Part shown: one piece after another, positions 872 to 57,580 of the stretch
Position numbering within the stretch: the first letter of the stretch is position 1
How the letters are laid out: each line of letters starts with the position of its first letter
Assembly (NCBI RefSeq): GCF_964355755.1
Contig: NC_092670.1
Span: forward strand, 41,205,388 to 41,269,387
Length of the DNA: 64,000 nt
Direction: 5' to 3'
Source: Antedon mediterranea
Lineage: Eukaryota; Animalia; Echinodermata
Translations under genes and position numbers: made by a program
The notes under the pieces: generated by a model
Database searches by the model: none
The model's input: only the letters and a program-made list of their open reading frames with translations
What the model was told of the DNA's origin: nothing

Positions 872-3800
872 ATGGCTAGGTCAACTGCTGAAGAAATTGA
901 TGATGTTGCAGGCCTTTTTGCAGAATTTTGTGTCGTAACTGGAGCTTCGGAAGGTGAAGCACTTGAATATCTACAAAAAACAAATTGGCAAGTCGTGGTA
1001 AGTATAAAGCCAGCTAAAATCGGATAAAAACATCACTCACTCAAATCTCCATTATGAATTTGCATTAAATTAGTGATCGTATTGGTCGGCACACCTGTGG
1101 GGTGTCATGACATTTTAATAATACACACACGTCATAAGTAGATTTTTGTTATTGGAGGAGGACTGTGCATGGGTCACATGATATTATAAATGACAACTTC
1201 TATTGCACTTTTAATGATGTCATCGAGAGTGCAATGTTGTTCCATTGCTCTCAGTCTCATATAACCATTCATATGTATACTATCGGGTATACTAATGCGT
1301 CTGATTTATTTCTACTCAAAAAATACAAAAAAAGATGGCCGGCACACAAGATTTCTGAGACATAATCTGTTCAGAATATGCTAATTTTAAATACTAATGT
1401 TATTCTATGTTTTGTTATTGAGGATGCAATCAACCTATACTTTGATACAGTGGCAAACCAACCAGATGATGATGAGAATGGAACAAGCTCAAATTCAAAA
1501 GACAGGTATTTAATTCAGCTTTTAAAACAAGATTTTGGATCAAACAACAAAATAAATTTTGAAAAAGATACTGGCATGTGCATGTCTTTTATTTTTACAG
1601 TCTCAAAGTTGAAGGCAGTAAAGAAAAAGAAGACAAAAAGATAAAAATGATAACATGGAATATTGATGGTCTTGATGACCGGAATTTAATAGACAGAACA
1701 AAAGCAGTTTGTAGTATAATAGAGAGGTATATCAAGTGACTCATTTTAACATACAGGTGACCCTTGTACTCCTAACCAATCACAATCAACTAAATGCAGT
1801 TTGTAGTATTATAGAGAGTGATGACTCATTTCTATTAACATACAGGTGACTCTGGTACTCTCAACCAATCACAATCAACTAAATGCAGTTTGTAGTATTA
1901 TAGAGAGTGACTCATTTCTATTAACATACAGGTGACTCTGGTACTCTCAACCAACCACAACAATGTAGTTTAAACCATTCAGGATCTTCTTTCTTGAACA
2001 GTATGATAGAATCGGACTGGGTTCATGTTGAACATCTATCTCTAGTTTGTTTTATCATAAAGCTTGTTTTTTGTTTACCTATAAATTGTATATCTTTACT
2101 AATTATTGTATATCTTTACTAATTATTGTATTTATTTCATAAGACTTGAACCAGATATCATCTTTCTCCAAGAGGTCATAGTTGAAACAGCATCTCACAT
2201 CGAAAAACGATGCCAAAAATACAAAGTGCTACCAACAAGTGATGCTGCATACTTCACTGCTATGATGTTGAAAAAAAGTAGCGTTTCAATTCTTTCAAGT
2301 ATTGTTGATCCATTTGAGAATACAACGATGATGAGGGCGCTTCACAAAGTCAAGGTTTATCATTTTATTTTTTACTAATTTTAACATTAATGCTACTTTA
2401 CAAATATTTGATAACACAGTAGGTCTACAGTTCAACGTTTAGCTACACCAACAAAGTATTTCTGACAAATGTACAGTATTATTATATGTTGGGTACAATT
2501 GTTTTTGCTAGGTGAAATGTGCCGGAATAGAGTTCCTTCTGTTGAATTCTCATCTTGAAAGCACAAAAGATGCAAGTGGTAAACGCAAAAGACAGTTTCA
2601 GATGGCACTTCAAGAAATGTGCAATTCTAACGATGGTACTGTTGCCTTGTTTGGAGGGGACACCAACCTACGAGACAGTGAGGTAAGTGAACACCAACCT
2701 ACGTGACAGTGAGGTAAGTGAACACCAACCTACGAGACAGTGAGGTAAGTGAACACCAACCTACAGGACAGTGAGGTAAGTGAACACCAACCTACGTGAC
2801 AGTGAGGTAAGTGAACACCAACCTACGAGACAGTGAGGTAAGTGAACACCAACCTACAGGACAGTGAGGTAAGTGAACACCAACCTACGTGACAGTGAGG
2901 TAAGTGAACACCAACCTAAGAGACAGTGAGGTAAGTGAACACCAACCTACAGGACAGTGAGGTAAGTGAACACCAACCTACGTGACAGTGAGGTAAGTGA
3001 ACACCAACCTACGCGACAGTGAGGTAAGTGAACACCAACCTACGCGACAGTGAGGTAAGTGAACACCAACCTACAGGACAGTGAGGTAAGTGAACACCAA
3101 CCTACGTGACAGTGAGGTAAGTGAACACCAACCTACGTGACAGTGAGGTAAGTGAACACCAACCTACGCGACAGTGAGGTTAGTGAACACCAACCTACAG
3201 GACAGTGAGGTAAGTGAACACCAACCTACAGGACAGTGAGGTAAGTGAACACCAACCTACGTGACAGTGAGGTAAGTGAACACCAACCTACAGGACAGTG
3301 AGGTAAGTGAACACCAACCTATGAGACAGTGAGGTAAGTGAACACCAACCTACAGGACAGTGAGGTAAGTGAACACCAACCTACGAGACAGTGAGGTATT
3401 AGTGAACACCAACCTACAGGACAGTGAGGTAAGTGAACACCAACCTACAGGACAGTGAGGTAAGTGAACACCAACCTACAGGACAGTGAGGTAAGTGAAC
3501 ACCAACCTACGTGACAGTGAGGTAAGTGAACACCAACCTACGTGACAGTGAGGTAAGTCATAATGAACACAGTCCTCTGACAAACATACAGTGTACACAA
3601 GATGCTCAACATAAACAAATCTTGGGATTAGTAGCTGACCAACCTTCCACTCCACGTACTTGGTGCATAAAACAGGCAACAAGTCAGTGTATTTAGAAAG
3701 ATATTTGGAAAGACTATTAAAATAATAAATTTCATCATTTTAAAAATAGTTTATTAATTTAACAATGATTTTAGGTGAAAAGTATTGGAGGGTTACCTGG

Positions 3801-16095: not shown

Positions 16096-19000
16096 TTATA
16101 GGCTGCTTTTAGCCTGGCCAACACTTGATGCAGATTTCTTTCCAAGTGCTTTACATATAAAGTCTGCTGAACTTATCAATTTTCCAAGATCAACGCCCTG
16201 TAAATAAATCATAAATGTCTTTGGTTTAAAGAGCTTATAGTACTTGGCACCATCAAGTCAATAATGATTTGATTTCTAAAAGTATACAGTATTTTACTTA
16301 AGTCACAAATATGAAAATAGTGTATTGAAATAGAATCTTACTGTTTGAATCCCCAAACCATCTAACATATATACAACATCTTCTGTAGCAACATTACCAG
16401 AAGCACCTTTAGCATATGGGCAGCCACCAAGGCCAGCAATTGATGAGTCTACAACACTTATTCCCAGCTAGAAGTATAACAGACATTTTATTAATTAATC
16501 TATTGGTATCTACTAGTAATACGTTAATACCCCCCCCCCCCCCCGTCCCACAAGGACGTAGATCATAATAGCTATTAAGGTTGCAGTAATGTTTATTTTA
16601 CTGATACTGGCCTAGATACGTACACTCTCAATGGATGGAGAACAAACAGCAATCAACATGCTTTTATTGAAGTTTAAAAATGATGATGTAATCATGGTAT
16701 TGTTGACTGCTGCTGGTTAATTTTCCGCTGCAGTCTGTCAATTTACATAAGGCTCTTCCAACCCTGGACTTCTATAACGTAAATGGTTATTAGGTATTAC
16801 TGTATGATGAAATAGGATCTTTTAATTTAGTGGCATAAAAAACATTTAGTATGTAATTAAGGGTGTTGCTCAGGCAACTGGGGCAACACCCTTGCATCCG
16901 CCCCTGGCATACATAGGAATTGAAGGAACAAGAAACAAGGGTATGTAAAATGTCCTACTGTAATCAGTAAATAAATCACCTGTAAAGCAGCAAAGATATT
17001 GACTAAAGCTTGACCATAAGTGTTATGAAAATGAACAGCAAGTTGTTCAATTGGTACATCATTTATGACATCTTGTAGCATCTGTTGCACAGCTAGAGGA
17101 GTTCCAACTCCAATCGTGTCACCAAGAGAGATCTCATAGCAACCCATTTCACGCATTCTCTTTGCTACCTAAAAATACAGTTACATTTATTGTTTCTTTT
17201 CAGGTTGTCTTTTATTATTTCTTTTCACTATGCTATATGCAAGACAAGTGCATACACATTTTACATAAAAAATAAAATGTAAACCGCTATTTTGTTGTTG
17301 AATAGACCATAATCAGTTTGGGAGTGTTGGTGTACCTCATTATCAGAAATGTGCTTATTCCCACAATTTTGCCCTAAACATGCACCAGTGCTTTGAATAA
17401 TTTATTACGGGTTCAATGGAAGATTGGCTGACGATCACATACAAAAATTCAAAGTATTTCTTTTTTTAAATGCAAATCAATACTTGGAAACAAGTTTACC
17501 CTAGTTACTGCACTTGGTTCTATTTTGCCTTCGTATGGACAGCCTACTACGCAAGATACATAACCTCACAAGTTTACCCTAGTTACTGCACTTGGTTCTA
17601 TCTTGCCTATGTATGGACAGCCTACTACGCAAGATACATAACCTCACAAGTTTACCCTAGTTACTGCACTTGGTTCTATCTTGCCTATGTATGGACAGCC
17701 TACTACGCAAGATACATAACCTCACAAATTTACCCTAGTTACTGCACTTGGTTCTATCTTGCCTATGTATGGACAGCCTACTACGCAAGATACATAACCT
17801 CACAAGTTTACCCTAGTTACTGCACTTGGTTCTATCTTGCCTTTGTATGGACAGCCTACTACACAAGATACATAACCTTACAAGTTTACCCTAGTTACTG
17901 CACTTGGTTCTATCTTGCCTATGTATGGACAGCCTACTACGCAAGATACATAACCTCACAAGTTTACCCTAGTTACTGCACTTGGTTCTATCTTGCCTTT
18001 GTATGGACAGCCTACTACACAAGATACATAACCTCACAAGTTTACCCTAGTTACTGCACTTGGTTCTATCTTGCCTTCGTATGGACAGCCTACTACGCAA
18101 GATACATAACCTCACAAGTTTACCCTAGTTACTGCACTTGGTTCTATCTTGCCTTTGTATGGACAGCCTACTACGCAAGATACATAACCTCACAAGTTTA
18201 CCCTAGTTACTGCACTTGGTTCTATCTTGCCTATGTATGGACAGCCTACTACACAAGATACATAACCTCACAAGTTTACCCTAGTTACTGCACTTGGTTC
18301 TATCTTGCCTTCGTATGGACAGCCTACTACGCAAGATACATAACCTCACAAGTTTACCCTAGTTACTGCACTTGGTTCTATCTTGCCTTTGTATGGACAG
18401 CCTACTACACAAGATACATAACCTCACAAGTTTACCCTAGTTACTGCACTTGGTTCTATCTTGCCTTCGTATGGACAGCCTACTACGCAAGATACATAAC
18501 CTCACAAGTTTACCCTAGTTACTGCACTTGGTTCTATCTTGCCTTTGTATGGACAGCCTACTACACAAGATACATAACCTCACAAGTTTACCCTAGTTAC
18601 TGCACTTGGTTCTATCTTGCCTTCGTATGGACAGCCTACTACGCAAGATACATAACCTCACAAGTTTACCCTAGTTACTGCACTTGGTTCTGTCTTGCCT
18701 TCGTATGGACAGCCTACTACACAAGATACATAACCTCACAAGTTTACCCTAGTTACTGCACTTGGTTCTATCTTGCCTATGTATGGACAGCCTACTACAC
18801 AAGATACATAACCTCACAAGTTTACCCTAGTTACTGCACTTGGTTCTATCTTGCCTTCGTATGGACAGCCTACTACGCAAGATACATAACCTCTTACTGG
18901 AATATTTGCTTGTTTTGCAGATTTCATAACTTCCTCAAACCTCATCAAACTTTCGTCAATTGAACAATTTATATTTTTTCTAAAGTCAAAAATAAAAACA

Positions 19001-21661: not shown

Positions 21662-24600
21662 ATGGGGAAAAAACAAAAATTAACTGACAAGGTAATTTTT
21701 TCACGTAGTACATTAGTGCCAATTAATAAATTATTATTTATGTCTAGCTAGGCTAGTTAGCTTCTCTCTCTATTTAGGCTAGGTTAGGCCTAGCCTACTA
21801 GCTAGCTAGCCCGGCTAGCTAGCTAGAATACAGATCACTCCGGCCGCGCTTCACTCCGGCCGCGCTTCACTCCGGCCGCGCTTCACTCCGGCCGCGCTTC
21901 ACTCCGGCCGCGCTTCACTCCGGCCGCGCTTCACTCCGGCCGCGCTTCACTCCGGCCGCGCTTCACTCCGGCCGCGCTTCACTCCGGCCGCGCTTCACTC
22001 CGGCCGCGCTTCACTCCGGCCGCGCTTCACTCCGGCCGCGCTTCACTCCGGCCGCGCTTCACTCCGGCCGCGCTTCACTCCGGCCGCGCTTCACTCCGGC
22101 CGCGCTTCAATCCGGCCGCGCTTCAATCCGGCCGCAGCTATGGAGCGCCCAATGAGTCTTTTACAACTGAGACACGTTTTTTTGTAGAGAATCAAAATAT
22201 ACATTTGTAATCATACAGTATATTTTTTCTCTTTCAGGATCATAACAACATCGCAAGTGTTTTAAATTAGGTCTAATGCTAAAACAAAATAATTTATGTG
22301 TTTTATCCAATGTAATAGGCTAGGCCTAGTATATTAATTGTAATGTGATTAATTAATGTAATTTATTGCAATGTACCCTATATGTCATATTATTTTTATC
22401 ATATATAAATTAAAATATAAAATCATTGTAAATTGGACTGTACAAAAATGATATATTAATTCTTGATACAATTCCAGGTAACATTAATTAGACGGATATT
22501 TGATTATTTGAAATAAATAAATTAATATTGTAAATATTGTTATTAACTATAACAAACATCAATAATAATTGATTATTTGAAATAAATAAATTAATATTTT
22601 ACATTGTTATTAACTATAATTAGTAAGTATGGGTACTGGCAAGATAAAGTGTTATAAAAATAAGGGTTTTAACTAATTTTTAATGTTAATAAATGTAAAG
22701 CTATAAAAATAAATGTACATAGAAAGAAATTAAATATTGTTATTCAAGCATTAATTAGACAGGTATTTGATTATTATTTTATTATTGAATTTAATTAAGT
22801 TAAGTTTAGTTTGAAAGAAAAAGCAGTTCCAACTTCTTTGAATGTTATTCTTAATGAAAAAAAGTAAAATTGTTGCTAATAAATATTCAACTAGTTCCAT
22901 TTAAATTCACCAAGAATTTGTTATAACACTGAACAGTATAGAAAACGTAGATATGGGCGCTCCATACTAACCGGCCCCTTTGCACAGGAAGTCGAATTGA
23001 ATAGCGGCCGGAGTGCATAACATCGCGCTAAACTGATACGGCGGCCGGAGTGAAGCGCGGCCGGAGTGATCAGCTACCGCTAGCTAGGCCTACTAGCCTA
23101 GCTGTAGTTACGCCGATTCAGGGATGATTCGGCCCCAAGACGACATATTCTGTCTGAAAATAAAGTTTGGGGAAAAAAGCTTATTTTATGCTTAATGCAT
23201 ATCAAAGTCGATAAATGTAAGTGTGCCGAATCGTCTCGGGGCCGAATCGAGTCTGGGTTCCAGACGGAGTTTTGTCTTAATATTAGTAAAAAGATAAATA
23301 TTTTGGCACATATGGCGTTTCATACGTATACTACTTGATTTTGGATACTCCGTCTGGGGAAACACGCACAAGTCACGTGGTTTAACACCAAGAATTCTTG
23401 GTGCATACGATTATCCGGTTGACTAGTTTCAGCTGCATGCGATTGGATACTCACTCGTACACCGTTTTAATATTCATATTTCAGAATTTCAAAGACTCAA
23501 CAACTAAGATGATGCGCATGCGCTATGTTACGTTTAGACAATGTGTACATTTATGAAAGTTATTATTTTATATGCCTAGTAGTCTGCTAAACATTTGATG
23601 GGATTTTTCCCAAGAACATGCTCGTCTTGATGTGATAGGCTATAGCTTCTCGGCAATTCAAACATTGAATGGATCATTTATTACGCGGAGATAATTTTGA
23701 TTTAATTCCCACCCAGACCCGGTCCTGTTTTGTGTGGTGGTGGTGTAGCCCTGTTGTGTGCCGGTGGTATGTAGGCCTCGACCTTTATTGGCGTTTTATT
23801 TGGCAGGTCATACGTGCGAGTTGAGTAGGACCTACGAAAGAGGCCTAGGCCAAGGACTAAACAATTCATAAACAACAACAAAAAAACAACTTGGCATTAC
23901 GATTTTATATTTCAACAGTCTCGATTGTACATTCAGCACTGTACGTATTCGATCATCAAAATAATTATTGGTTGATTCGAAATCCATATTTACATACCGG
24001 CCGCCCCATATAGCCAAATACGGTATGATAACCTACGTCATTCTTATCGGATGTTTGCGGTCCGCAAATCGATTTCTATACGTGTTTCACAAGTCTGTAT
24101 TTTCAGACAAAAATCGCGGTCGAAATAAAAACAAATAAATAAAAAAAAAGACAATAAATACAGACTTGGGGCAAGTCTAGGCCGAATCGTCCCGCTACCG
24201 TTACGCCTGGCCCTGCTAGCTAGCCTAACTGGTAGCTACTATGATTCGGCCCAGCGAGAGGCTTTCGGCCCACTTAGGAGGTCGGCCTTTAATATAAATG
24301 TGATTCTTAATTTCTTATTGATTTTTTACAATTTAGGTAGCTGACTTCCTACCTGATTCATTTCCGTCAATGGAAGATGAACTCGATACTCGTAAAATGG
24401 TTAAAATTCAAAACAAAAAGAAAAAGTCAGGCGGCTTTCAATCAATGGGTGAGTCTATTTAAAAAGTTTACAAAAAAATGTTATTAATTAAATGATTCTT
24501 GAGATTGTGATTTTAATTAATAAAATGTTGTATCATTTATAGGTTTAAATCATGCAGTTTTTAAAGGTATAATACGTAAGGGATACAAAATTCCTACACC

Positions 24601-27600
24601 CATTCAACGCAAGGTAAAAGGCTATTGCATTTTTTAAAAAAGTTTTTAATGAAATTTAACATATCCAATCCAATCTAATTTGTCTGCGATCATTTACAGT
24701 TTGTTAAATTATTTTAAATTGTGAAATATGTCTACCTGTTTTCTAGAGTATCCCAGAAATAATGGAAGGCAAAGATGTGGTTGCCATGGCAAGAACAGGT
24801 AGTGGAAAGACTGCTGCGTTTCTTATTCCAATGTTGGAGAAGCTGCAACAAAGGTCAGGGCAATCTGGTGCAAGAACCTTAATTCTGTCACCTACAAGAG
24901 AACTGGCTCTACAGACACTTAAGTTTGCCAAAGAGGTAAGTAGAATGAGTAGAACCTTAATTCTGTCACCTACAAGAGAACTGGCTCTACAGACACTTAA
25001 GTTTGCCAAAGAGGTAAGTAGAATGAGTAGAACCTTAATTCTGTCACCTACAAGAGAACTGGCTCTACAGACACTTAAGTTTGCCAAAGAGGTAAGTAGA
25101 ATGAGTAGAACCTTAATTCTGTCACCTACAAGAGAACTGGCTCTACAGACACTTAAGTTTGCCAAAGAGGTAAGTAGAATGAGTAGAACCTTAATTCTGT
25201 CACCTACAAGAGAACTGGCTCTACAGACACTTAAGTTTGCCAAAGAGGTAAGTAGAATGAGTTAAGAACAAAATCTTTATAAATAAAAACTTACAGATAT
25301 ACTGAAGTAAAAATATAATAGTGATAATCTAATAGCTTTTTCTGTAACTTTATATTATCAAGAGTTCAAACAATAAATAAAAGTATTACTCTAATTGTTC
25401 CATTTTTTTTTTATTAACATTTTATATTTGTTGTATTTTCAGTTAGGTCGTTTCACAGATCTGCGTGCAGAGGTAATTCTAGGGGGCGACAGCATGGAAG
25501 AACAATTTGCTGCCTTACATGAGAATCCTGATATAATTATTGCAACACCTGGTCGTTTATTACATATCATTATGGAGATGGATCTAAAATTGAAAGCAGT
25601 TCAGTATGTTGTCTTCGATGAGGCTGACAGGTGAATATTTAGATTTTATTGTAGTTCAGTGTGTTGTCTTTGATTAGGCTGACAGGTGAATATTTAGATT
25701 TTATTGTAGTTCAGTATGTTGTCTTTGATGAGGCTGACAGGTGAATATTTAGATTTTATTGTAGTTTAGTATGTTGTCTTTGATTAGGCTGACAGGTGAA
25801 TATTTAGATTTTATTGTAGTTCAGTATGTTGTCTTTGATGAGGCTGACAGGTGAATATTTAGATTTTATTGTAGTTCAGTATGTTGTCTTTGATTAGGCT
25901 GACAGGTGAATATTTAGATTTTATTGTAGTTCAGTATGTTGTCTTCGATGAGGCTGACAGGTGAATATTTAGATTTTATTGTAGTTCAGTATGTTGTCTT
26001 TGATGAGGCTGACAGGTGAATATTTAGATTTTATTGTAGTTCAGTATGTTGTCTTAGATGAGGCTGACAGGTGAATATTTAGATTTTATTGTAGTTCAGT
26101 ATGTTGTCTTTGATTAGGCTGACAGGTGAATATTTAGGTTTTATTGTAGTTCAGTATGTTGTCTTTGATGAGGCTGACATGTGAATATTTAGATTTTATT
26201 GTAGTTCAGTATGTTGTCTTAGATGAGGCTGACAGGTGAATATTTAGATTTTATTGTAGTTCAGTATGTTGTCTTTGATGAGGCTGAAAGGTGAATATTT
26301 AGATTTTATTGTAGTTCAGTATGTTGTCTTTGATGAGGCTGACAGGTGAATATTTAGATTTTATTGTAGTTCCGTATGTTGTCTTTGATTAGGCTGACAG
26401 GTGAATATTTAGATTTTATTGTAGTTCAGTATGTTGTCTTCGATGAGGCTGACAGGTGAATATTTAGATTTTATTGTAGTTCAGTATGTTGTCTTAGATG
26501 AGGCTGACAGGTGAATATTTAGATTTTATTGTAGTTCAGTATGTTGTCTTTGATTAGGCTGACAGGTGAATATTTAGATTTTATTGTAGTTCAGTATGTT
26601 GTCTTTGATGAGGCTGACAGGTGAATATTTAGATTTTATTGTAGTTCAGTATGTTGTCTTTGATGAGGCTGACAGGTGAATATTTAGATTTTATTGTAGT
26701 TCAGTATGTTGTCTTTGATTAGGCTGACAGGTGAATATTTAGATTTTATTGTAGTTCAGTATGTTGTCTTTGATTAGGCTGACAGGTGAATATTTAGATT
26801 TTATTGTAGTTCAGTATTTGATTTGATTTATTTTGATACCATACAAAGTTAACAAATACAGATATACAGGTAAATATTCATGATTGTATTCAGTACATTG
26901 TCTTTGGTGAGAAAAATATTCATTTTGCTGTTGAATTATTGTAGTGTGTACCGTGTTGTGGAGAAGCATTTCCTAGGGAACTCAATTGACAACATACAAG
27001 TCCATGCGCTGTCTTTTTGAAGTTCTGGTTTGTTAAAGCATAAAGAAATGGGTTTATTGCTGCATTGGTCCAAACCAAAACATTAGCACTTCTTATAAAA
27101 ACCATTGATGTTTGGTTGTCCTTATTTGTAAAAACAGCAATACCGTAAGGAATCCAGCAGAAACATGTAATGCTAACAATAGCAATAACAGCTTTCATGA
27201 CTCTAAATTCTGGATTGCGTGGCGCTTGTGATATGGTTCTAGGTAATGTTCTACCATTCCGCATTGTTAGTGAATGTGTATGTACACGTCGTCTGCTCTC
27301 ATGATAAGCTTTATATATCAAGTAATTTGTAATAGTAACAAGACAAAGTGAATAACCCATTGCATATCCTATTATGATTGCTTCAAACGTCCATGATTCC
27401 AAATCTCCATAAACTATTGCGCAATGTCGTAATGCAACGTTAAATCCCACCTCACCAAAACCACACATTGGCGCTAACACCGGCCCAAGAGTCAACAGAA
27501 AGTTTATACAAATCGTAAACACAATATATTTGTATTGTGTAAAGCGGATGTAAAATCTATGAGATTTAGTTATCAGTATATAACGATTAATACTAATAGT

Positions 27601-30600
27601 TGTCAGGGTAGTTAAAGACATGCCTAGAGTCCAAAGTGTAACATATCCCAGAAACTTACACAAATTACAATCAAGGTTCCAACTGTTGTTGTACACACTA
27701 TAAATAAAGAATGGCATAAGAAAGCCTGTAGTGATCAGATCAAAGACTGCTAGATTGGCAACCCAAAAGTAAGTTACAGTCCGTAATGCTGGCGTGAATA
27801 TAATGGCTGATATCACAAATATGTTACCCACACTTCCTACAATACATAAAGTAATGAGGTAGATAACTTCAATGACTGTTCCAAAAGGCCCGCTGGATTC
27901 TGTCAGAATGTCTGTCACATTCACTATTATGGGATAGCAGTAATTTGCCATGATTTGGAAATATTCAATTCAATCTTTTGATTTTTACTAAACAATCCAC
28001 TGAGACCTAAACAGAGATTAAAACAAAAAAAGTAGTGATAATAATAAAGAAATTTAGGAATTCTATGACTATAGAACATGTCAATTACTTGATAAATGAA
28101 ATGAGAATGTAGCTATTAGTATTATGGATCATGAAATGAGAATGTAGCTATTAGTATTATGGATCATGAAATGAGAATGTAGCTATTAGTATTATGGATC
28201 ATAAAATGAGAATGTAGCTATTATGGATCATGAAATGAGAATGTAGCTATTATGGATCATGAAATGAGAATGTAGCTATTAGTATTATGGATCATGAAAT
28301 GAGAATGTAGCTATTAGTATTATGGATCATGAAATGAGAATGTAGCTATTAGTATTATGGATCATGAAATGAGAATGTAGCTATTAGTATTATGGATCAT
28401 GAAATGAGAATGTAGCTATTAGTATTATGGATCATGAAATGAGAATGTAGCTATTAGTATTATGGATCATGAAATGAGAATGTAGCTATTAGTATTATGG
28501 ATCATGAAAATGTTTGGATAACAACAGAAAATGAATGAAAACAGTGGTATATTCATCATGATGCCAACATCTGGTGAGCTATCGATATAGAGTGAATATA
28601 AATATTGAGCTATGCTTCCTGGTCCCCATGGTATACCTTAAATTAATTAAATAAAACATTTACACAAATAAAATCATACTTACCGCCGACATCATACTTA
28701 CCGCCGACACTGGGAGTTGGGAACAACTAACAAGACCATTTCAACTTGACCAGATTCAGATTTCTAATAAGATTTTTAATTCTTGCTTGGAGTATGAAAT
28801 TTAATTCTTTTAAGGCTCTGTTTACCTTAATCTTGAGTTGTATGACGAAACATGTTTGATTAAATGCCATATCATAGATATAATTATCAAAGTAGATTGC
28901 ACTAATAACTTATATCAAGTTGAAACACTTAATTATATCATGGAGGGATGATTATATTGTGAAGCTAATGGGCTTGTTTACCGTAACTGTCCATTAGTCT
29001 TGTGTAAAGTAAAGTGAATATTAATGTGTTTACCCTTAATATATTTACACCAGTATCTGCATATAGATAGACGAGGTATCAAATACCATACACAAGATCA
29101 TATCACATTTAGAATATTCCATTGGCATCTGTACGATATTATTCTGTTTTTATCTGATTTGGCAGTTAATACTTAGTTATACACTGTTTACCTCAGTATC
29201 AAATAAAAAATTTGTTTTTTTTTGTGTTTTGTGTGCATGCTACGTGTGTTGCTTTAACAACATTTTAAAGTTAAGTCGTGATGTAGTCATTGTAGGGCCA
29301 TTCAAAATGACTTGTTGACTTTTAGACCCTTGGTACCTCCCTGCTTGATGTTTAATCAAAATATTAATAAATGAATTTGTCTACTTTGACAGATTGTAAA
29401 TTACGGTCGCTCATTTCTCATTTGTTTATATTAGGTTATTTGAGCTTGGATTTGCTGAGCAATTAAGAGAGATAATTCAGAGATTACCTGACAACAGACA
29501 AACAGTCTTATTTTCTGCAACACTTCCAAAGTCATTGGTAGAATTTGCTCAGGCAGGTCTTAATGATCCTCTACTTATACGTCTTGATGTCGAAACTAAA
29601 ATCAGTGAAAATCTCAAGGTATATCAGATTTGATTTTTTTAATTATGGCGAAACAAATAAAATGTTGATAAACAAGCTGTTCAACAGAGTTAGATGTTTG
29701 GCAGAATATCGGTAAAATTCAAAATGCATACAACATAAATACCATAAATATTTGTATAATAATTGCTGATATAATAATTAGACATCAATTTGAGTCAAAA
29801 CCATTTAACGTTATTTCACCCATTGATTTTATAGACATCATTTCTTTGTATGAGGGCAGCAGATAAATTACCAGTGTTGATGTACCTGTTGAGAGAAGTT
29901 GTGAAAGCCAATGAACTTGCTGTTGTTTTTATGGCAACTAAACATCATGTAGAATTTGTTAAAGAGGTGAGATTGATGTTTGCATTCATTTCAAATTTGT
30001 AGTGTTTTACATTCACATGTTTGTGTACATGTAGATGATATCAAATTGAACATTTTTAGCAGTCTTTATTTGGCCAAGTCCAGTAATAAAAAAGGAACTG
30101 TTTTCCACAAACAGTATTTTAAAGAAATTGAGTCTTGAAATACAAAATAAAAAATGCTCTTCCAATTCTACAGTAATTAAAAACTAAACCTAAAATATAT
30201 TTTCTATCAAGATTCTAACGCAAGCTGGTGTAAGCTGTACTTACATCTTCAGCTCTCTTGACCAGACTGCACGTAAAATTAACGTGGCAAAATTTACAAA
30301 TAGAAAAACAAATGTGATGTTAGTGACAGATGTAGCTGCTCGTGGTATTGACATCCCAATGTTGGATTATGTCATAAATTTTAACTTCCCAGCAAAACCA
30401 AAGTTATTCATACACAGAGTTGGTAAGTTGTAACTTCTTCATTTGTATTGTAGTAGTGTGGCAAAAGCAGCTTGTAGTTTCTCATAAAGTTTTTTTAAAA
30501 TTGAGCTTTTTTAATTGTTTTTCAGGTCGTGTAGTTTTAAAAATTGAGTTAATTTGTTTTTCAGGTCGTGTAGTTTTAAAAATTGAGTTAATTTGTTTTT

Positions 30601-33600
30601 CAGGTCGTGTAGCAAGAGCTGGTCGTAGTGGTACAGCTTTCTCAATGGTAGCACCTGATGAATTGGCACATTTAGCTGACCTTCATCTGTTCCTTGGCCG
30701 ACCTTTGACATTCTGCCAAAGTTTACACACTAAAGGTGATGATCATATTAGTATCCACTGAATTCAATTTTAATGATTAAATTGAGTATGTAATGTCATA
30801 ATGTAAATATTATCAAGTAAATTTTGGTTTAAAATGATAACAAAATCACAAAAATAGGAGAACCCATTTGAAATAATATTTTGCAAAAGAATTAACACAA
30901 GTTCAAATTTACTACTAAGATGATGATGGCTTGTTTGGACGTGTGCCTCAAAGTATAGTGGAGGATGAAGCAGATCACATACAGCAGTTAGAAAACAGAT
31001 CAATGGAGATTGAAGGATTGAAAAAAGTTTGTCGCAATGCTTACTCACAATATCTTAAATCACGACCGGCGCCCTCTACGGCTAGTATTAAACGTATGAA
31101 AGAGTTTGATGGCGTTAATGTCATGTTGCATCCAATGTTTGGTAAGTTAATAATTTATAGAAGAATAATAACTATTAGATCAAAGTGAAACATAAAAACA
31201 AAATGTAAGTAATCTTAATATCCACAGAAAAGCATTTTTGAATTCATTATAATGAAATTTATTTTTAAATAGATGTAAATGATAAAGATGAAACTACAAG
31301 ATACCAACTTGTGGATGGAATCAAGAATTATAAAGCAAAAACGGTAAAATAAATAACTTGTTACACCCTTTCTCCACCAACTATATAATAAACTGTATAC
31401 AAAGTAAGGGTTAATTGTCAATACTTCACAGACAATATTTGAAACCAACACTACAGCAAAGAGTTCAGCATTTGATGTTATGAAAACAAAGAGAAGAATT
31501 CATCAAAACGCAGTTAGTAAAAGAAGGAATAGATTGGAAGAAAAGGAATCAATAGAAAGTGGAAAAAGTAGAAAAAGAAAAGCAAATGATGATGATGGTG
31601 TAAAAATGGCAATGGTAATTTTATTGATGTATTACTTATTGATTATAGAATGTTTTAATATGTGTATGTTTATATATGTTTATTGATCTATTACTTATTG
31701 ATTATAGAATGTTTTAATATGTGTATGTTTATATATGTTTATTGATCTATTACTTATTGATTATAGAATGTTTTAATATGTGTATGTTTATATATGTTTA
31801 TTGATCTATTACTTATTGATTATAGAATGTTTTAATATGTGTATGTTTATATATGTTTATTGATCTATTACTTATTGATTATAGAATGTTTTAATATGTG
31901 TATGTTTATATATGTTTCATATATGTATGCTTTAATGCTTCTTATAATCATATAAACCTAATAAGGAGTTGTTCTTATTTTTAAGGATACATTCTCAGTA
32001 GTAATAGACGGCAAAAGAGGACGTAAATCAGCCAAATTTGATGAGGGTAGTGATTACTATATTTCCTATACACCATCAGACAAACAAACAGAGCAAGGGT
32101 ACATATGCTTCTATTTTATCAAAGGGTATATTTATCATATTCATGTTACTTTTATCTGCATGTTATTTTTGTGTGTGTGTTTTATTTGACAGGCTAAGTG
32201 TTGGTTCATCGTTTAGTCATCAAGCTAAGTCTGCTGTACTTGACTTAACTCAGGATGACAGTCGGATAATGAATAAAAATCAGAAGCTTATTCGCTGGTA
32301 AGACAATTAATCTGTTATGTAGTGATATGCCCAAATATGGTAGTGATATGACATCATCATGTCCATATATGGGCACATCACATTTTTATACAGTTTCTTC
32401 AGTAATCAATTAACGTTTAAAATATAATAAACATTTGTTTAAATATTTCACTTTCTTTTTTTAGGGACAGAAAAAAGAAGAAATACATAAACGAAGCTGG
32501 AAAAGATACACTAAAGAAAATAAAAACAGAAAGTGGGATGTACATCTCGGCATCTTACAAAACAAACAGGTATATTCAACCAATGTTTATCAAATCAAGA
32601 TCACTAATTAAAAGCAGGTTGTTAATTAAATAATATATTTTAACTTTATTTGTTGTTTAGGTACAAAGATTGGCAAGAAAAGAGCAAGGTTGGTATGAGG
32701 GCAGCAGATGAAAGTGATGATGAAGATACAGCAAAAAGAAATGGTAAAGCCCTGCTTCTATATTGATTGCACACTGATTACTGTAGTACCTATTATGTAG
32801 AGCATTTAAAGAAATACTGTGTTTATATTGATTGCACACTGATTACTGTAGTACCTATTATGTAGAGCATTTAAAGAAATACTGTGTTTATATTGATTGC
32901 ACACTGATTACTGTAGTACCTATTATGTAGAGCATTTAAAGAAATACTGTGTTTATATTGATTGCACACTGATTACTGTAGTACCTATTATGTAGAGCAT
33001 TTAAAGAAATACTGTGTTTATATTGATTGCACACTGATTACTGTAGTACCTATTATGTAGAGCATTTAAAGAAATACTGTGTTTATATTTATTGCACACT
33101 GATTACTGTAGTACCTATTATGTAGAGCATTTAAAGAAATACTGTGTTTATATTGATTGCACACTGATTACTGTAGTACCTAGTATGTAGAGCATTTAAA
33201 GAAATACTGTGTTTATATTTATTGCACACTGATTACTGTAGTACCTATTATGTAGAGCATTTAAAGAAATACTGTGTTTTTTTAAAGGCAAACTTGGATT
33301 AAAATCAACGTTAGGAAATCGTTACCGTGGTCATCATAAACAACAAAAAGGAAAAGCACGAAATGAATTAATACCAAATGAGAAAATCTTAAAGACACGT
33401 AAGAAAAAAGAAAAGAATCAAGAAAGAAGTAAACCTAGGAAAGACCGGGGAAGAGATGGCAGGGGTGGAAGAGATGGCAGGGGTGGAAGAGATGGCAGGG
33501 GTGGAAGTGCTGGTAAAGGAGGCAATGTCTTTGGCAGAAAGGGAGTCAGCAATTTTGGTGGAGGCCGAGGAGGTGGAAGAGGCGGCCGAGTTGGTGGTGG

Positions 33601-33709
33601 AAGAGGTCGAGGTGGTGGAGGTCGAGGTGGTGGAGGCCGAGGTGGTGGAGGCCGAGGTGGTGGAAGCCGAGGTGGTGGAAGAGGTCGAGGTGGTAAATCC
33701 AAAAGATGA
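21662..33709 (+). CDS. DDX54: DEAD-box RNA helicase DDX54/Dbp10, multi-exon, with a C-terminal RGG tail
   Basis: Motifs [63 protein letters not shown] and a DBP10CT-like KIKTESG; RGG-rich about 33445-33700; TGA at 33707. Confidence 0.95.
21826..23078. mobile_element. Non-autonomous DNA transposon with subterminal inverted 16-bp arrays and an 8-bp TSD
   Basis: TSD gctagcta at 21818-21825 and 23079-23086; (cactccggccgcgctt) x~18 on the left and inverted copies at about 23023-23071. Confidence 0.85.
23115..24199. mobile_element. Non-autonomous DNA transposon with subterminal IRs and an 8-bp TSD
   Basis: TSD gttacgcc at 23107-23114 and 24200-24207; IR gggatgattcggcc / ggccgaatcgtccc. Confidence 0.85.
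24873..25262 (+). repeat. 78-bp x5 perfect in-frame repeat of DDX54 motif Ia plus 5' splice site
   Basis: The unit encodes [21 protein letters not shown] followed by |gtaagtagaatgagt; first donor at 24936. Confidence 0.97.
25598..26817 (+). repeat. 55-bp x22 repeat of the DDX54 DEAD motif plus 5' splice site
   Basis: Unit agttcagtatgttgtctt(c/t/a)gat(g/t)aggctgacag|gtgaatatttagattttattgt. Confidence 0.97.
26920..27951 (-). CDS. Rhodopsin-family (class A) GPCR with an intronless CDS, nested antisense in a DDX54 intron
   Basis: 343 aa with 7 hydrophobic segments. Motifs GN (TM1), NLAVFD (TM2), INRY (TM3, melatonin-receptor-like NRY), CWIP (TM6), NPFLY (TM7) and helix 8 NFKK. Confidence 0.93.
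   Translation of the reverse strand: MANYCYPIIVNVTDILTESSGPFGTVIEVIYLITLCIVGSVGNIFVISAIIFTPALRTVTYFWVANLAVFDLITTGFLMPFFIYSVYNNSWNLDCNLCKFLGYVTLWTLGMSLTTLTTISINRYILITKSHRFYIRFTQYKYIVFTICINFLLTLGPVLAPMCGFGEVGFNVALRHCAIVYGDLESWTFEAIIIGYAMGYSLCLVTITNYLIYKAYHESRRRVHTHSLTMRNGRTLPRTISQAPRNPEFRVMKAVIAIVSITCFCWIPYGIAVFTNKDNQTSMVFIRSANVLVWTNAAINPFLYALTNQNFKKTAHGLVCCQLSSLGNASPQHGTHYNNSTAK
28096..28508. repeat. 35-bp x~12 minisatellite in the probable 5' UTR intron of the GPCR
   Basis: Unit atgaaatgagaatgtagctattagtattatggatc; two copies carry a 7-bp deletion. Confidence 0.93.
30497..30612 (+). repeat. 39-bp x3 repeat of a DDX54 3' splice site
   Basis: tgtttttcag|gtcgtgtag with AGs ending at 30525, 30564 and 30603. 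Confidence 0.92.
31622..31917. repeat. 59-bp x5 intronic repeat
   Basis: tattgatctattacttattgattatagaatg... units starting a few bases after a donor. Confidence 0.9.
32759..33279. repeat. 65-bp x8 repeat filling almost the whole last DDX54 intron
   Basis: Unit tatattgattgcacactgattactgtagtacctattatgtagagcatttaaagaaatactgtgtt. Confidence 0.93.
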
Positions 33710-42789: not shown

Positions 42790-42932
42790 TTAAAACAGTA
42801 CAACTCATGACATGAAAATACCTATATCTACTAAACAGTACAACTCATGACATGAAAATACCTATATCTACTAAACTGTGTACAGCTTTAAAGGTGACAA
42901 ATTTGGTATTTCACACTTTCTCCCATAACATT

Positions 42933-43158
42933 TTACTTTCCGGGAATGCCAAACCCTTCCTGGTGGTTTCCATGACATCTTACTTTCCGGGAATGCCAAA
43001 CCCTTCCTGGTGGTTTCCATGACATCTTACTTTCCAGGAATGCCAAACCCTTCCTGGTGGTTTCCATGACATCTTACTTTCCAGGAATGCCAAACCCTTC
43101 CCGGTGGTTTCCATGACATCTTACTTTCCGGGAATGCCAAACCCTTCCCGGTGGTTTC
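42933..43158 (-). repeat. 47-bp x5 repeat of the FMN reductase terminal codons and stop
   Basis: Each unit encodes NH(R/Q)EGFGIPGK*; the true stop is at 43121. Confidence 0.95.
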
Positions 43159-44196
43159 TCATGGCATGTGCATGCCAATCTAATTGGGTAAGAAGTCTCT
43201 TTGCTCCAGACTCCATATGGTCATTCAGAGGTTTGCCTTCTTCATCCAGACTCTTGTTAGTTTGAGGTAATCCAAAAATATTTGACACACTGATGCATCC
43301 AATTTCACCCAATAAAGCACGGAGCTGTATGGCTGCCCTCATTCCTCCATACTGTCCTAAAAAAGAGAATTTTAGAGCTTAATAAAATGCAGTCTCTATG
43401 ATAATGATAACTATTGCAACAGCTTAATAATAAATGATATACTCACCTGGAGAGTAGCAAACGATTCCTGAAGGTTTATATGAAAAGCTGCTGCCTGGGA
43501 AGTGGTCCAAGAGATTAGCAAGTGCTGGTGGAATGCTATGATTGTACTCTCCAGTAATGACAACATAACCGTCGGCTTCCTTTATTCTGTTTCCCAGATC
43601 AACCAATAACGGAGGAGCTTCAGATGGATTCTTATAAAAGTGAAGAGGTTTCTTGAGTAGTGGCAAATTTAGTTCTTGGGCATCTAAAATAACATAAATT
43701 ACATTTAGTTAATTGCTTTGAGCAGAATGTGGAAATTATCATTCAATTATAATAAATTTGTTCTTACAAAAACAACACGTTAATCTTTAATTTATTAGAA
43801 AACCCATTAACTTGATTTAAAACCAGGATACATAGCTCAGGTCAAGGCGATCGCGTAGCCTTTTGGCAAAATAATTAGTACTGTCGATCGGTGTCAATCA
43901 CAATAAATTTGATATTGTTCATAAACTGTAAATCACCACGATGAAGGCGCGGCTGCTAATACCACAAAGCAATCAAAGACGGACGATCAATCACAGCTGT
44001 GTTACTTATGGCCTACACGCGATCTCGATACCCTGGTATTGTGGCTAGCTTACTTACCCCGTTACTTACCCATAAAATCTACGTCGTGGCCTGCTTTTAG
44101 CAAGAAGTTTTGCATAAATTTTGCAACACGTAATCCAAGTCTGTTTTCTCGTACAGTTCCAAGGAAAAGTACGTATTTCAATGGTTTGCTAGCCAT
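43121..44196 (-). CDS. NAD(P)H-dependent FMN/quinone reductase (FMN_red flavodoxin fold), 3 exons
   Basis: Exons about 44196-44070, 43683-43447 and 43356-43121. Motifs LGTVRENRLG, ADGYVVITGEYNHSIPPALANLLD, YKPSGIVCYSPGQYGGMRAA. Confidence 0.9.
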
Positions 44197-52291: not shown

Positions 52292-55200
52292 ATGGAAACT
52301 ATGTCATGCACTGGACATACAGTCGGTAAGTATTGCATTGCATGAAATGTTAACATAATAATAAGAACAAACTTTCCTTGGAAGTAGTTTATACACTTTA
52401 AAAATTATAGATGAGTTAGGGTACAGTAGGCCTACTATGCGTTTTTCCAAAAAAATCCATGGAACATTGTCTAAATCTTTATCACTATACAAATATTTGA
52501 TTGCAGTTTGAACTACATACACACTACATAAAAACTTCATCACTTGACATAATGTCATCTTAAGTATACATGAGAAATGCAATATTTACGTGAACTTTGG
52601 TTGAACTTTAGTCTATTAATGTCTAATATGAAATCCAGACACACTGTTATCAGGTGTATTATGCAATTCATTTTAAGTCTAGACTTAACAATAAAATTGA
52701 GGAAGGAACATTTTGAGTTGTCACTAGATTTTGAAATTTAAGTTTTGATTAATAAATCTTATGTATTCAGTCTTCCATATCATGTAGGTTCCTCAACAAG
52801 GAAAGTCAAATAAATATGGTTTGAACTTGTAAAGCTGTATTATCCCTTAATTATGGTAGCATATTGTAAAAACATATAATGCGACCTACCGCTGATAGTT
52901 TAAAAGATCAGCTTGATCATGCAGAAAGAAGGTCATATTTTGGCTTTAAAACTTGCTGAAGGGTGATGTTGTCTTCAAAATGTTCTTCCTGTTTGTAAAT
53001 TAAACATAGTCTTGGGTGGTGTTTAACCTATGATGTTGGATTGATTTTAATCTGTAAGTTATTGTCAAATTGGTAGTTAAATACACCTGTACTTACTTCT
53101 TTAAGTTAGATTGTTTGTTGCTACTGTCTTCTTTAAGATTTAATTGTCTCTTGCTATAATTTATACTTTTTACTTTCTATAGCTATATAATTTCTTATTT
53201 AAGTTACATTGGCTGTTGCTATAATTTATTCTTTAGGCTAGATGTCCTTTACATATTAATGTTATCTTAAAATCATAACGTGTATACATTACCCTGCATT
53301 GTCCTTTAATAAATGAATCTATATTTATGTTTAACTCTTAATTACATTGTTAATTATCTTATGAGAGAAGCATAAGAAGCATTGAGAAAACCGAGAGGTT
53401 CTCGTGGTGGCAGAAATAAAAGTCGTAAGATTAAAGTCGTTATTGGTAATGGGCGTAGGCCTAGGCCTACCACCATGGCCGCCCTCAACAAAAGTGGCTC
53501 TTCTCGAAATAATCTGGTCACAATTAAACTACGTAGATCAAGAGTTTCTTGTCCGAGACTTTTCCTTGCTAATGCCCGCTCTGTTAAAAATAAGATTGAT
53601 GAATTTGAAGCCACCACTTCCAAATTCAAAGTCGATATAGCTGTGTTAACAGAGACTTGGCTGAATGATGCTACTATTGATTTTGTGAATTGTTCCGGTT
53701 TTAAAAAGTTCACGAAGAATAGATGCAACAAGAGAGGTGGTGGTGTTGCTATTTTTGTTGGTGATGATTTTGCCTGTGAATCTTGCATTGCACATGGTAG
53801 CTGTAATTTCGAATGCTTTTGGATAAAGACATCTATTCCAGGCAAGTCAAATCAAGGTAGTCACTTTTATATTGGAGCTATTTATTATCCTCCGTCTGCC
53901 GCTAATGCGGATTTGTTGATTGAGCACATTGTTGATACAATTGATAACATTCGTTCTATGGATTTCGCTGCTCCTATTGCTATTTTGGATGACTTTAATG
54001 ACCTAGATCTAGCTGAGCTGGAAGTGAATGTTGGACTGTCGCAAGTTGTTAACTTCGCTACACGAAAGGATGCCCTGTTGGACAAGATATTTTTGAGTCG
54101 TGCTGATCTTTACCATCTTCCGCAACGCTTAGCGCCACTGGGTCGGAGTGACCATAATGCCATCCTATTGGAACCACTGATTGAATTACCTCAGCACAAG
54201 CGTCTATCAGTGCGTTCTCAGCCATATCGTGACTCCTCTGTTTTGTCCTTTGGTCAATGGGTTACAACCCATGAGTGGAATGATGTGCTGAATATTGAGG
54301 ACGTCAATCGAAAAACCAAAATGTTCTCTTCAATTTTGAATGGTGCTTTTAACAAGATATTTCCTGTGCTGATTAGGAACAAGCGCACTGCTGACAAGCC
54401 CTGGATGTCCGACAAGATTCGAAGATTAATTGACTCTAGACAAAATTTGTTTCGTAGGTTTGGATGAGTGGCGTTCAATTCGCAACTTAGTCCAAGATTG
54501 TATTAGAAAGGCTAAAAACAAATATTATTGTAATTCCTTATTAAGTCTTAAACGTAACAACCCTGCCATGTGGCATAAAGGTATTAAACAACTATGTAAT
54601 CTTAAGACTAAAAATACTAATTTCACCTTGCCTGGGCTGTCCAAAGTTGAAACTGCCTCTGATGCCCATTTCTCTAGTGTTTGTAATGCCATCCCTCCTC
54701 TTAATTTAAACGATTTGCCTGCTTATCTCCCAGCCCCTGGGCCACCACCTTTAATATATGCTGGTCAGGTCCTAAAAGCCCTTTGTAATCTTAAGCCTAA
54801 CAAAGCTGGCCATCCAGATGAACCTCCTATTAAACTATATAGAGATTTTGCTCCTGAACTTGCTGAACCTGTTGCGGATATCTTCAATCATGCATTGAAG
54901 GATGGTGTTTTCCCCGACCTTTGGAAAAGGGCTACTGCAGTTCCCATTCCTAAAACTGTGAATGCTAGTTCTGTCTCTGACCTTAGACCTATTTCCCTTA
55001 CCTATGTTCTTGCCAGGGTATTTGAATCTTTTATTGTTAAGTGGATTCTTGAAGATATTAAGGGTAAATTAGATTCTCGTCAATTTGGTAGTAGGAAAAA
55101 GGCTTCCTCAACTCACTATCTTGTTAGTCTTATTGACTCTACACTCAAAGATGTTGAGAAGGGTAAATGTTATGTTAACCTATGTGCCACTGACTTTACT

Positions 55201-57580
55201 AAAGCTTTTGATCGTGTTGATCATAATGTTATTATTATAAAGTTGATTGAACTGGGTGTGAGGTCGTCCATAATTCCCATCGTCTGCAGCTTTCTCACTT
55301 CCCGTTCTCTCAACACCAAGTTTGCTGGGATTTTGTCATCTTCAAAGTCACTGACTTGTGGTGTCCCACAGGGGACATTGCTTGGCCCTGTACTTTTCCT
55401 AGTACTTATTAACGATGCTTGTGTTGATTGCTGCAGACGATGGAAATATGTGGATGACCTCACCCTTGGGGAGGTCGTTCGCAAAGGTGATTTGCCTTCC
55501 ATGCAATCCCTGTTAGATGATCTGAGTGTTTGGTGTTCATCCAATAATAAGATACCCAAACCCTCCAAATGCCATATCTTGGTTGTCAATTTTCTTAAGG
55601 ACAAGTCGGATGATATTATATCGCCTTCGTTTAGTCTGAGTGGTTCCATTTTACAAGTAGTTGATCACTTGACGCTTCTTGGTGTAATCATTCAAAATGA
55701 CCTGAAATGGGAACTTAACACAAATAATATTGTGTCTAGAGCTTCTAGACGTTTATTTTCCTTGTGCATTTTGAAGAAAGCAGGAATCTTAATTAATGAT
55801 CTGTTGACTGTTTATATGGCGTATAAACCTAGGAAAAATATTTTTAAATATTCTTAATTCTAGGTTAACACAATTTACAAATAGTAAAAAGTTAATTCAT
55901 GAGGAACAAGCAGGCTTTCGTAAGGGATATAGAACGACAGATAATATATTCATTTTAGATACCCTCATCTCTAAATACTTAGATAAAAAGCGGGGTAGGA
56001 TTTTTGTTTGTTTTGTTGATCTTAAACGTGCCTTTGACTCTATAAATCATACACTTTTACTACATAAGTTGAAATGTATCGGTGTTTCAGGCAGAATGTC
56101 ACACATAATAAATTCCTTATACCAAAACTTATCTGCTCATGTTAAAATTGGCAACAAACTTAGTCCATCTTTTAATTGTTCGATTGGAGTACAACAAGGT
56201 TCTCCGTTGTCGTCTTTACTCTTTAATATTTACATTAATGATTTGAGTGGTATACTTAATCAGGTAAACGATTTCATTCAAATTGGAGATTGTCATATGA
56301 ATCATCTTCTTTATGCAGATGACTTAGTGCTTGTTAGTGATACGGTGAAAGGTCTCCAAAAATTAATAAATAAACTTGAACTTTATTGTGATACTTGGAA
56401 ACTTACTGTAAACACTACAAAATCCAAAATTATGGTTTTTAAAAATGGCCGCAATTTAAGGAACATTGAAAAATGGAAGTATAAAAATATTCAATTAAAA
56501 ATTGTTAATTCGTATAATTATCTTGGTGTTATTTTTAGTTCAAATGGTGCATGGAACAACTCAATGCAACATAATCAACAAAAAGCAAATCAAAGTTTAT
56601 TCTCCTTAAAATCATTCATTTATCGTAACTTATCTTTTCTTCCAATTAATACATGGAACCATATCTTTGATGTGAAAATACTTCCTATTTTAACGTATGG
56701 AAGCGAAATCTGGGGAATGTCAGATAGCACAAACATTATAGAAAAAACACATACTAAATTTTGTAGATATTTATTGCAAGTTGGAAAAAATGCACCAAAT
56801 GCCGCTGTTACTTCTGAGTTAGGTAGATTACCACTTTCTGTGGATTGTTTAGTTACAGTTATAAGATTTTGGTTACACATTATTACTTTAGATCATGACA
56901 GATTCATTTTTAAGTGTTATGAGTTTCAACTTAGAAAAGTTAACCGTAATGAGAATTGTTGGGCACAACAGGTCAAACACTTACTCTTTTCTACTGGTTT
57001 TGGTTATATATGGTTACAACAATATGTTAATAGTAAAGGTTTATTTTTGAGAGAATTTAAGTTGCGCTTATGTGATATTGAAAAACAAAAATGCATTCAA
57101 AAATTTAGTTTACATAATAAGTTAAGGCTCTTTTCTCTTTATAAAAAAGAAATATGTTTAAGTTATCACTTGACCAACATCATTAATTTTAAACAAAGAA
57201 GATTATTAACTAAGTTACGTTTAGGGATATTAGAGCTAGAAATTGAAAAGGGCAGATGGGAGGGTGTAGAAAGATATAAGAGAACGTGTAAATTATGTAA
57301 AAAGAACATTGTTGAGGATGAATATCATTGTATTTTGCAATGCACATTTTACAATGATTTAAGAAAAAGTTTTATTCCAAGATTTATTCGTGTTTTTCCT
57401 TCTATTAATAAGCTTTGTTTATTACTTTCCAACACAAATTTTACTTATAATTTAGGAAAATACGTCTACTTTGCTTTTGAAAGAAGAAACCATTATCTTA
57501 AGTTATAGTTAATTTTTATTTGTTTGTATTAGGGCCAAAGGCCAATATACTTTGAACCAATAAATTCCCTGAAAAGGGGG

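Follow-up and report, generated by a model that had tools for sequence, protein, structure and literature searches.

A young minisatellite repeats the exon 3 splice donor of a DDX54/Dbp10 helicase gene in an open frame and is probably removed with the intron

Tandem repeats that run across exon-intron boundaries are known from lancelets as 'mirages', in the genes for Adh3, the globins BflGb6 and BflGb9, troponin C and PGBD5. Splicing of these genes is described as apparently undisturbed, and the accounts given there include no aberrant mRNA (PMC3087553; PMC3902484); minisatellite units in the lancelet work measure 10-160 bp (PMC3087553). Comparable arrays have been described in humans. For the 37-bp VNTR in IVS7 of F7, which offers several identical donors, splicing is reported to use the first one only, with pseudo-donors of this type described as silent unless the first donor is mutated, and LMNB2 and PDGF (81-bp) are presented as alike; in two of the five precedents given, 6-16 and CBS, the two nearest pseudo-donors are used as well. 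Minigenes of F7 are reported to have given no pseudo-donor product in 50 clones (PMC1557585). In duplicated human genes, internal tandem repeats are also said to change exons and introns (PMC2812944). As for the general rules of donor choice, human data indicate that the downstream donor is preferred for short introns and that exons longer than 250 nt are disfavoured, and in human minigenes with 365-nt introns the upstream of two identical strong donors is reported to be chosen exclusively (PMC9225289).

The locus described here lies in a DDX54/Dbp10 helicase gene within a stretch of 64,000 nucleotides, the whole of which we call the window. The predicted protein contains the Pfam domains DEAD (PF00270), Helicase_C (PF00271) and DBP10CT (PF08147, E 3e-11), and, judged by their positions in this protein, helicase motifs I, Ia, Ib, II, III, V and VI are all intact. 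A homologue search gave 2671 matches from 7992 candidates. Among the best 120 of these matches, the named ones are nearly all DDX54, and over the helicase core the closest are from a sea star (70.6%), a hemichordate and sea urchins, which makes an echinoderm or a relative of one the probable source. Motif Ia is repeated in one of the best 120 of the 2671, a predicted mandrill protein; the duplicated block is longer there and the downstream sequence is missing, so we took this to be another event, namely an annotation or assembly error. After subtraction of extra array copies, 14 of the 15 introns of the gene are at most 250 nt long.

Several other features were observed in and around this gene. 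Its RGG-rich C-terminal tail is made of short coding repeats (33449-33700, plus strand). An intronless open reading frame for a 7-transmembrane receptor (Pfam 7tm_1, E 4e-33) lies antisense inside intron 4 (26920-27969, minus strand), and a contig of 201 nt from sequencing run X5 maps near it, at 27865-28065. Intron 13 contains an element of about 70 nt (32319-32387) that matches contigs by the tens of thousands in each of four runs, which makes it a very high-copy short dispersed repeat. Upstream of the gene, at 21835-22135 and 23000-24290, there are a GC-rich 16-nt array and related motifs in opposite orientation, possibly the ends of a DNA transposon. Further away, overlapping open reading frames with endonuclease and reverse transcriptase matches (53376-57508, plus strand) indicate a LINE-like element.

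At the border of exon 3 and intron 3, a unit of 78 nt is present 5.0 times, with 100% matches between copies according to both Tandem Repeats Finder and direct comparison. The latter also shows that the 78-nt periodicity ends at both borders of the array, with no extension on either side. Each unit consists of the final 63 nt of exon 3 and the initial 15 nt of intron 3. The five donors, of which the first has its GT at 24936, are identical, and their sequence (GAG/GTAAGT, with the slash at the splice site) has 8/9 consensus matches and is the best among the gene's 15 donors. Read in the frame of exon 3, the unit contains zero stops and encodes 26 residues around motif Ia. Direct comparison thus confirms the central claim of the initial annotation, that there are five identical, in-frame and stop-free copies of motif Ia, each with a donor. 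One minus-strand frame is also open across the array, with sub-threshold Pfam matches only, and the other four frames contain stops. The RNA fold of the array does not stand out (z -0.12) and is the same for every copy. The unit (24873-24950) also carries AG dinucleotides behind pyrimidine-rich stretches, and splicing into these from an earlier copy would yield mini-exons of 21 nt, in frame, or 37 nt, out of frame; some aberrant products would therefore not escape decay.

In a related organism with about 5% different letters (organism B), both of two samples (X9 and X7) have the site crossed by one contig, in which a single unit is followed by the same flanking letters. The array thus arose after the two organisms had diverged, and the recent origin that had been proposed for it holds. 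Sample X9 is also without at least four arrays of the helicase gene within 24873-30612, with units of 78, 55, 35 and 39 nt, hinting at a lineage-specific minisatellite burst or at fast turnover.

Of ten sequencing runs, none is recorded as RNA. The RNA status of X5 is a guess, though its contig is spliced. This run comes from a different individual and study than the window sample, its individual may lack the 78-nt array, and contigs drop minor forms. A 2391-nt contig from X5 joins exon 3 to exon 4 at donor 1 (Table 1) and contains one unit. With exon 3 as the anchor, the contig's offsets fit the 16-exon model exactly at all five checkable exons (5/5), so that this mRNA contains no array-derived bases at any array of the gene. 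Only two X5 contigs fall on 24700-25660; none extends over 24936-25262 and none has a repeated junction, absence in contigs being no proof that the sequence is missing. The second of these contigs is a cycle of the neighbouring 55-nt array (25598-25660), with a depth of 13.4 compared to 21.6 for the mRNA. This individual therefore has the neighbouring array, yet its exon 4 is joined at the first donor. The cycle could represent unspliced RNA, DNA or leaky downstream donors. If unspliced RNA in X5 amounts to about 0.5, the value obtained when 13.4 is spread over 22-30 copies, the signal of the 78-nt array would sit near the detection limit.

It had been proposed that donors 2-5 give rise to stop-free mRNAs with 26-104 extra residues, and a single product from the donor at 24936 had been named as the outcome that would speak against this. 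The arithmetic of the proposal is correct. As to the existence of such mRNAs, X5, the sole RNA-like run, has the join at donor 1 only, and extra units were not seen in it as coding sequence of mature mRNA. The contrary outcome is thus what the X5 contig contains, for an individual that may lack the array and in a type of data that loses minor products.

Table 1. Coordinates of the helicase gene, the 78-nt array and the other arrays of the gene
Feature	Position	Strand	Basis
DDX54/Dbp10 DEAD-box helicase gene, 16 coding exons, 829 aa using donor 1	24370..33709	+	exon model with GT-AG introns, Pfam, homologues, spliced contig offsets
Exon 3, 189 nt, motifs I and Ia	24747..24935	+	exon model, RNA-like contig (record 281-469)
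Minisatellite, 5.0 x 78 nt	24873..25262	+	repeat finding, copy comparison, contig depth
Donor 1, ancestral position, join seen in RNA-like contig	24933..24941	+	507-nt skip, GT..AG, depth 21.6
Intron 3, measuring 507 nt if donor 1 is used and 195 nt, close to its ancestral length, if donor 5 is used	24936..25442	+	exon model, single copy in organism B
Donors 2-5, identical pseudo-donors, all in frame, GT at 25014, 25092, 25170, 25248	25011..25253	+	use not observed in X5
First in-frame stop of the intron (25263-25265) and hexamer aagaac (25264-25269) shared with 24872-24877	25263..25269	+	same letters in organism B
Exon 4 with motifs Ib and II, 188 nt	25443..25630	+	exon model, RNA-like contig, Pfam
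Another donor array of the gene, 22 copies of 55 nt, not in frame and containing stops	25598..26817	+	repeat finding; cyclic X5 contig, exon 4 joined at first donor
Acceptor array of the gene, 2.6 x 39 nt, in frame, stop-free, within motif VI	30511..30612	+	repeat finding; X5 uses last acceptor

We consider it likely, with a probability of roughly 0.75, that the array is a young minisatellite of the mirage type, that the spliceosome takes the first donor, and that the extra copies leave with the intron, so that the normal 829-residue helicase is made. Such an array could have begun with one imprecise 78-nt duplication across the exon-intron border and then expanded by slippage or unequal exchange. 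The donor nearest to exon 3's own acceptor would be chosen, in carriers of the array too, and the array would be close to neutral. Its open frame would be accidental, because the length of the unit is divisible by three and the 15-nt head of the intron has no stop. When duplications across the gene's 15 donors were simulated, 12-19% of them kept the frame and lacked a stop, the figure varying with the length ranges, and the probability that at least one of five donor arrays is open by chance is 0.48-0.66. While the array itself is beyond chance, its open frame is at chance level.

The five arrays in this calculation are those in the window with intact repeated donors: 31 nt x 29 copies, 78 x 18, 78 x 5 (the array of exon 3), 55 x 22 and 114 x 2. 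This count leaves out an 89-nt array whose donor has decayed, a 47-nt array that spans a stop codon, and purely intronic arrays. In the other four donor arrays, none of the 65 downstream donors keeps an open frame (0/65). The residual introns of these arrays are 222, 331, 2649 and 135 nt long; two of them (222 and 135 nt) are short, as is the 195 nt in the exon 3 array, and one of the four arrays has the same donor sequence as the latter. If these genes work, the animal would follow a first-donor rule, also beside short introns; the argument assumes that they are functional. The statement that the array of exon 3 differs from other donor arrays in being in frame and stop-free is accurate for these four, but the 39-nt acceptor array of the same gene shares both properties.

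Three of these donor arrays lie in other genes, and in each of them all downstream donors shift the frame or hit a stop. The array at 2660-3558 (plus strand) belongs to an endonuclease/phosphatase gene, presumably TDP2-like by its motifs, that at 17490-18893 (minus strand) to an HMG-CoA lyase-like gene, and that at 60954-61182 (plus strand) to a gene with PH domains downstream. The 47-nt array (42923-43167, minus strand) repeats the last codons and the stop codon of an FMN reductase-like gene. If splicing took one of the upstream acceptors of the 39-nt array, motif VI would be split by 13 or 26 extra residues.

Use of the first donor is further supported by the apparent presence of the array on both haplotypes, since deletion of the orthologous yeast gene, dbp10, is reported to be lethal (PMC11024185). 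What speaks against it is that this is a short-intron gene; by analogy with short human introns, which are reported to prefer the downstream donor (PMC9225289), a later donor might be favoured.

An alternative that we regard as unlikely is that donor 1 is dominant in carriers and that use of donors 2-3 ranges from a few percent to 20 percent, which would produce minor DDX54 forms with 26-52 extra residues. All four downstream donors stay in frame, and, as the unit is stop-free, mRNAs of this kind would escape nonsense-mediated decay. Such minor forms are compatible with the contig data, the 55-nt cycle in X5 (depth 13.4) could partly be leakage of this type, and the reported use of the two nearest pseudo-donors in 6-16 and CBS offers a parallel (PMC1557585). 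However, a contig bearing a repeated junction is missing from X5, and the F7 minigenes, with 0 such products in the 50 clones reported, point the other way (PMC1557585). In addition, the exon ending at donor 2 would already be 267 nt long, i.e., in the range above 250 nt that is described as disfavoured (PMC9225289).

A stronger proposal is that carriers use donors 2-5 measurably and that the junction was trimmed to 78 nt by selection for an open frame. The minisatellite would then be making a protein repeat of adjustable dose out of the boundary between an exon and an intron, and the essential helicase would accommodate this repeat in its core, as a loop between motifs I and Ia. We find this combination quite improbable. 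The strongest point in favour of the initial annotation, which also counts against the first-donor reading, is that the end of the unit directly abuts the first in-frame stop of the intron; this could reflect selection, or it could be coincidence. The same annotation had pointed to the shared hexamer aagaac as a sign of a microhomology origin. The hexamer is present and is ancestral, with the same letters in organism B, but its register is shifted by 2 nt relative to the unit. An in-register slip on it would give a unit of 80 nt, 2 nt longer than the observed one, that contains the stop. Microhomology therefore leaves the 78-nt unit unexplained, and the junction was imprecise. A match of at least 6 nt at an offset of 1-8 nt has a null probability of 0.025 per test and is reached by 2 of 22 array ends (about 0.5 expected), and several arrays in the window have whole-number copy counts with no in-register homology. 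The hexamer is thus at most a weak hint of an origin by microhomology, which may have helped.

We consider it very improbable that intron definition makes the last donor, with its 195-nt intron, the main one in carriers. The result would be a 933-residue helicase whose extra units form a loop that follows motif I and precedes the final copy of motif Ia. The short-intron architecture of the gene, together with the downstream preference reported for short human introns (PMC9225289), would favour this. It is also conceivable, by analogy with related helicases, that a tandem duplication could fold with the last copy of motif Ia and push the rest into the I-Ia stretch as a loop; between these motifs, DDX1 is reported to have about 240 residues and DDX3X 10 extra residues (PMC4555926). 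Because of this possibility, essentiality alone does not exclude the use of downstream donors. However, the last donor requires an exon of 501 nt. Moreover, among the best 120 of the 2671 homologues, motifs I and Ia lie 26 residues apart in 119 (the remaining one has no match), and motifs Ia and Ib lie 44 apart in 116 (one has 46, one 30, and two have no match); the donor-1 product has these same two spacings. The rule would also wreck the four neighbouring genes or exons whose arrays are out of frame or carry stops, and a product of the last donor was not seen in X5.

It is hardly credible that the assembler created the five copies: their 100% identity would suit this idea, but independent read-derived contigs from two DNA runs give 78-nt and 60-nt pieces of the unit at the depths expected for 4-5 copies, and such separate high-depth contigs mean that the array is not an assembly artefact. 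In run X1, contigs end at 24902 and restart at 25241, so that the break begins 30 nt into the array, and the unit forms a 108-nt cyclic contig with a depth of 1286, where the flanks have 282-351. In run X3, from the same sample, the unit is split into contigs of 78 nt and 60 nt with depths of 230 and 180, at a flank depth of 49. The resulting ratios for X3 are 4.69 and 3.67, and over the two runs the unit has 3.7-4.7 times the depth of the flanks. Five copies predict 5 and 4 times the flank, a 5/4 genotype 4.5 and 3.5, and a 5/1 genotype 3 and 2. Contig depth, a poor measure of copy number, gives about 4.6 copies per haplotype if the flank depth counts both haplotypes. The sequenced sample appears to fit 5/5 or 5/4, and with the assembled allele at five, the other would have about four or five. 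Since X1 and X3 may be the source of the window, they confirm the assembly rather than describe the population.

As most likely read, the array has little significance, being one more splice-site minisatellite of a type known from lancelets and humans. If carriers use donors 2-5 measurably, it would capture a coding repeat as it arises and let donor choice in an invertebrate be read free of decay. Its one useful property is that the five donors are identical and all their products would be stop-free, so steady-state RNA of carriers would report donor choice without loss to nonsense-mediated decay. With its short residual intron, the array is also a natural invertebrate test of first-donor choice versus intron definition. 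In any case, it is a trap for gene prediction and PCR assays; amplification across identical repeats can itself generate ladders through slippage.

Among the described systems, the internal tandem repeats of human genes are similar in that they, too, lie at exon-intron boundaries, where they may be kept or spliced out; they sit in redundant primate paralogues, as described, whereas for the DDX54 array no retained repeat was seen in X5 (PMC2812944). The F7 IVS7 array, as described, likewise has an authentic donor followed by identical pseudo-donors, with the first donor used; for DDX54 this is the donor in the X5 contig, and by analogy it would be the choice of carriers. The DDX54 unit differs in being mostly exonic (63 of 78 nt) and in leaving a short residual intron (195 nt). 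The lancelet mirages have the following in common with it: a unit over the exon-intron boundary, here 63 + 15 nt with five donors, that repeats the splice signal; a unit of 78 nt, within the size of minisatellites, in homogeneous copies; and several arrays in one gene region. As to splicing, which is regular in the mirages, one RNA-like contig here has one unit, in an individual that may lack the array. As to length, the depth fits 5/5 or 5/4 in one sample, and organism B has a single copy. Unlike the mirages, the array described here belongs to another animal group, its best matches being echinoderm DDX54, and its unit is in frame and stop-free over a motif of the helicase core.
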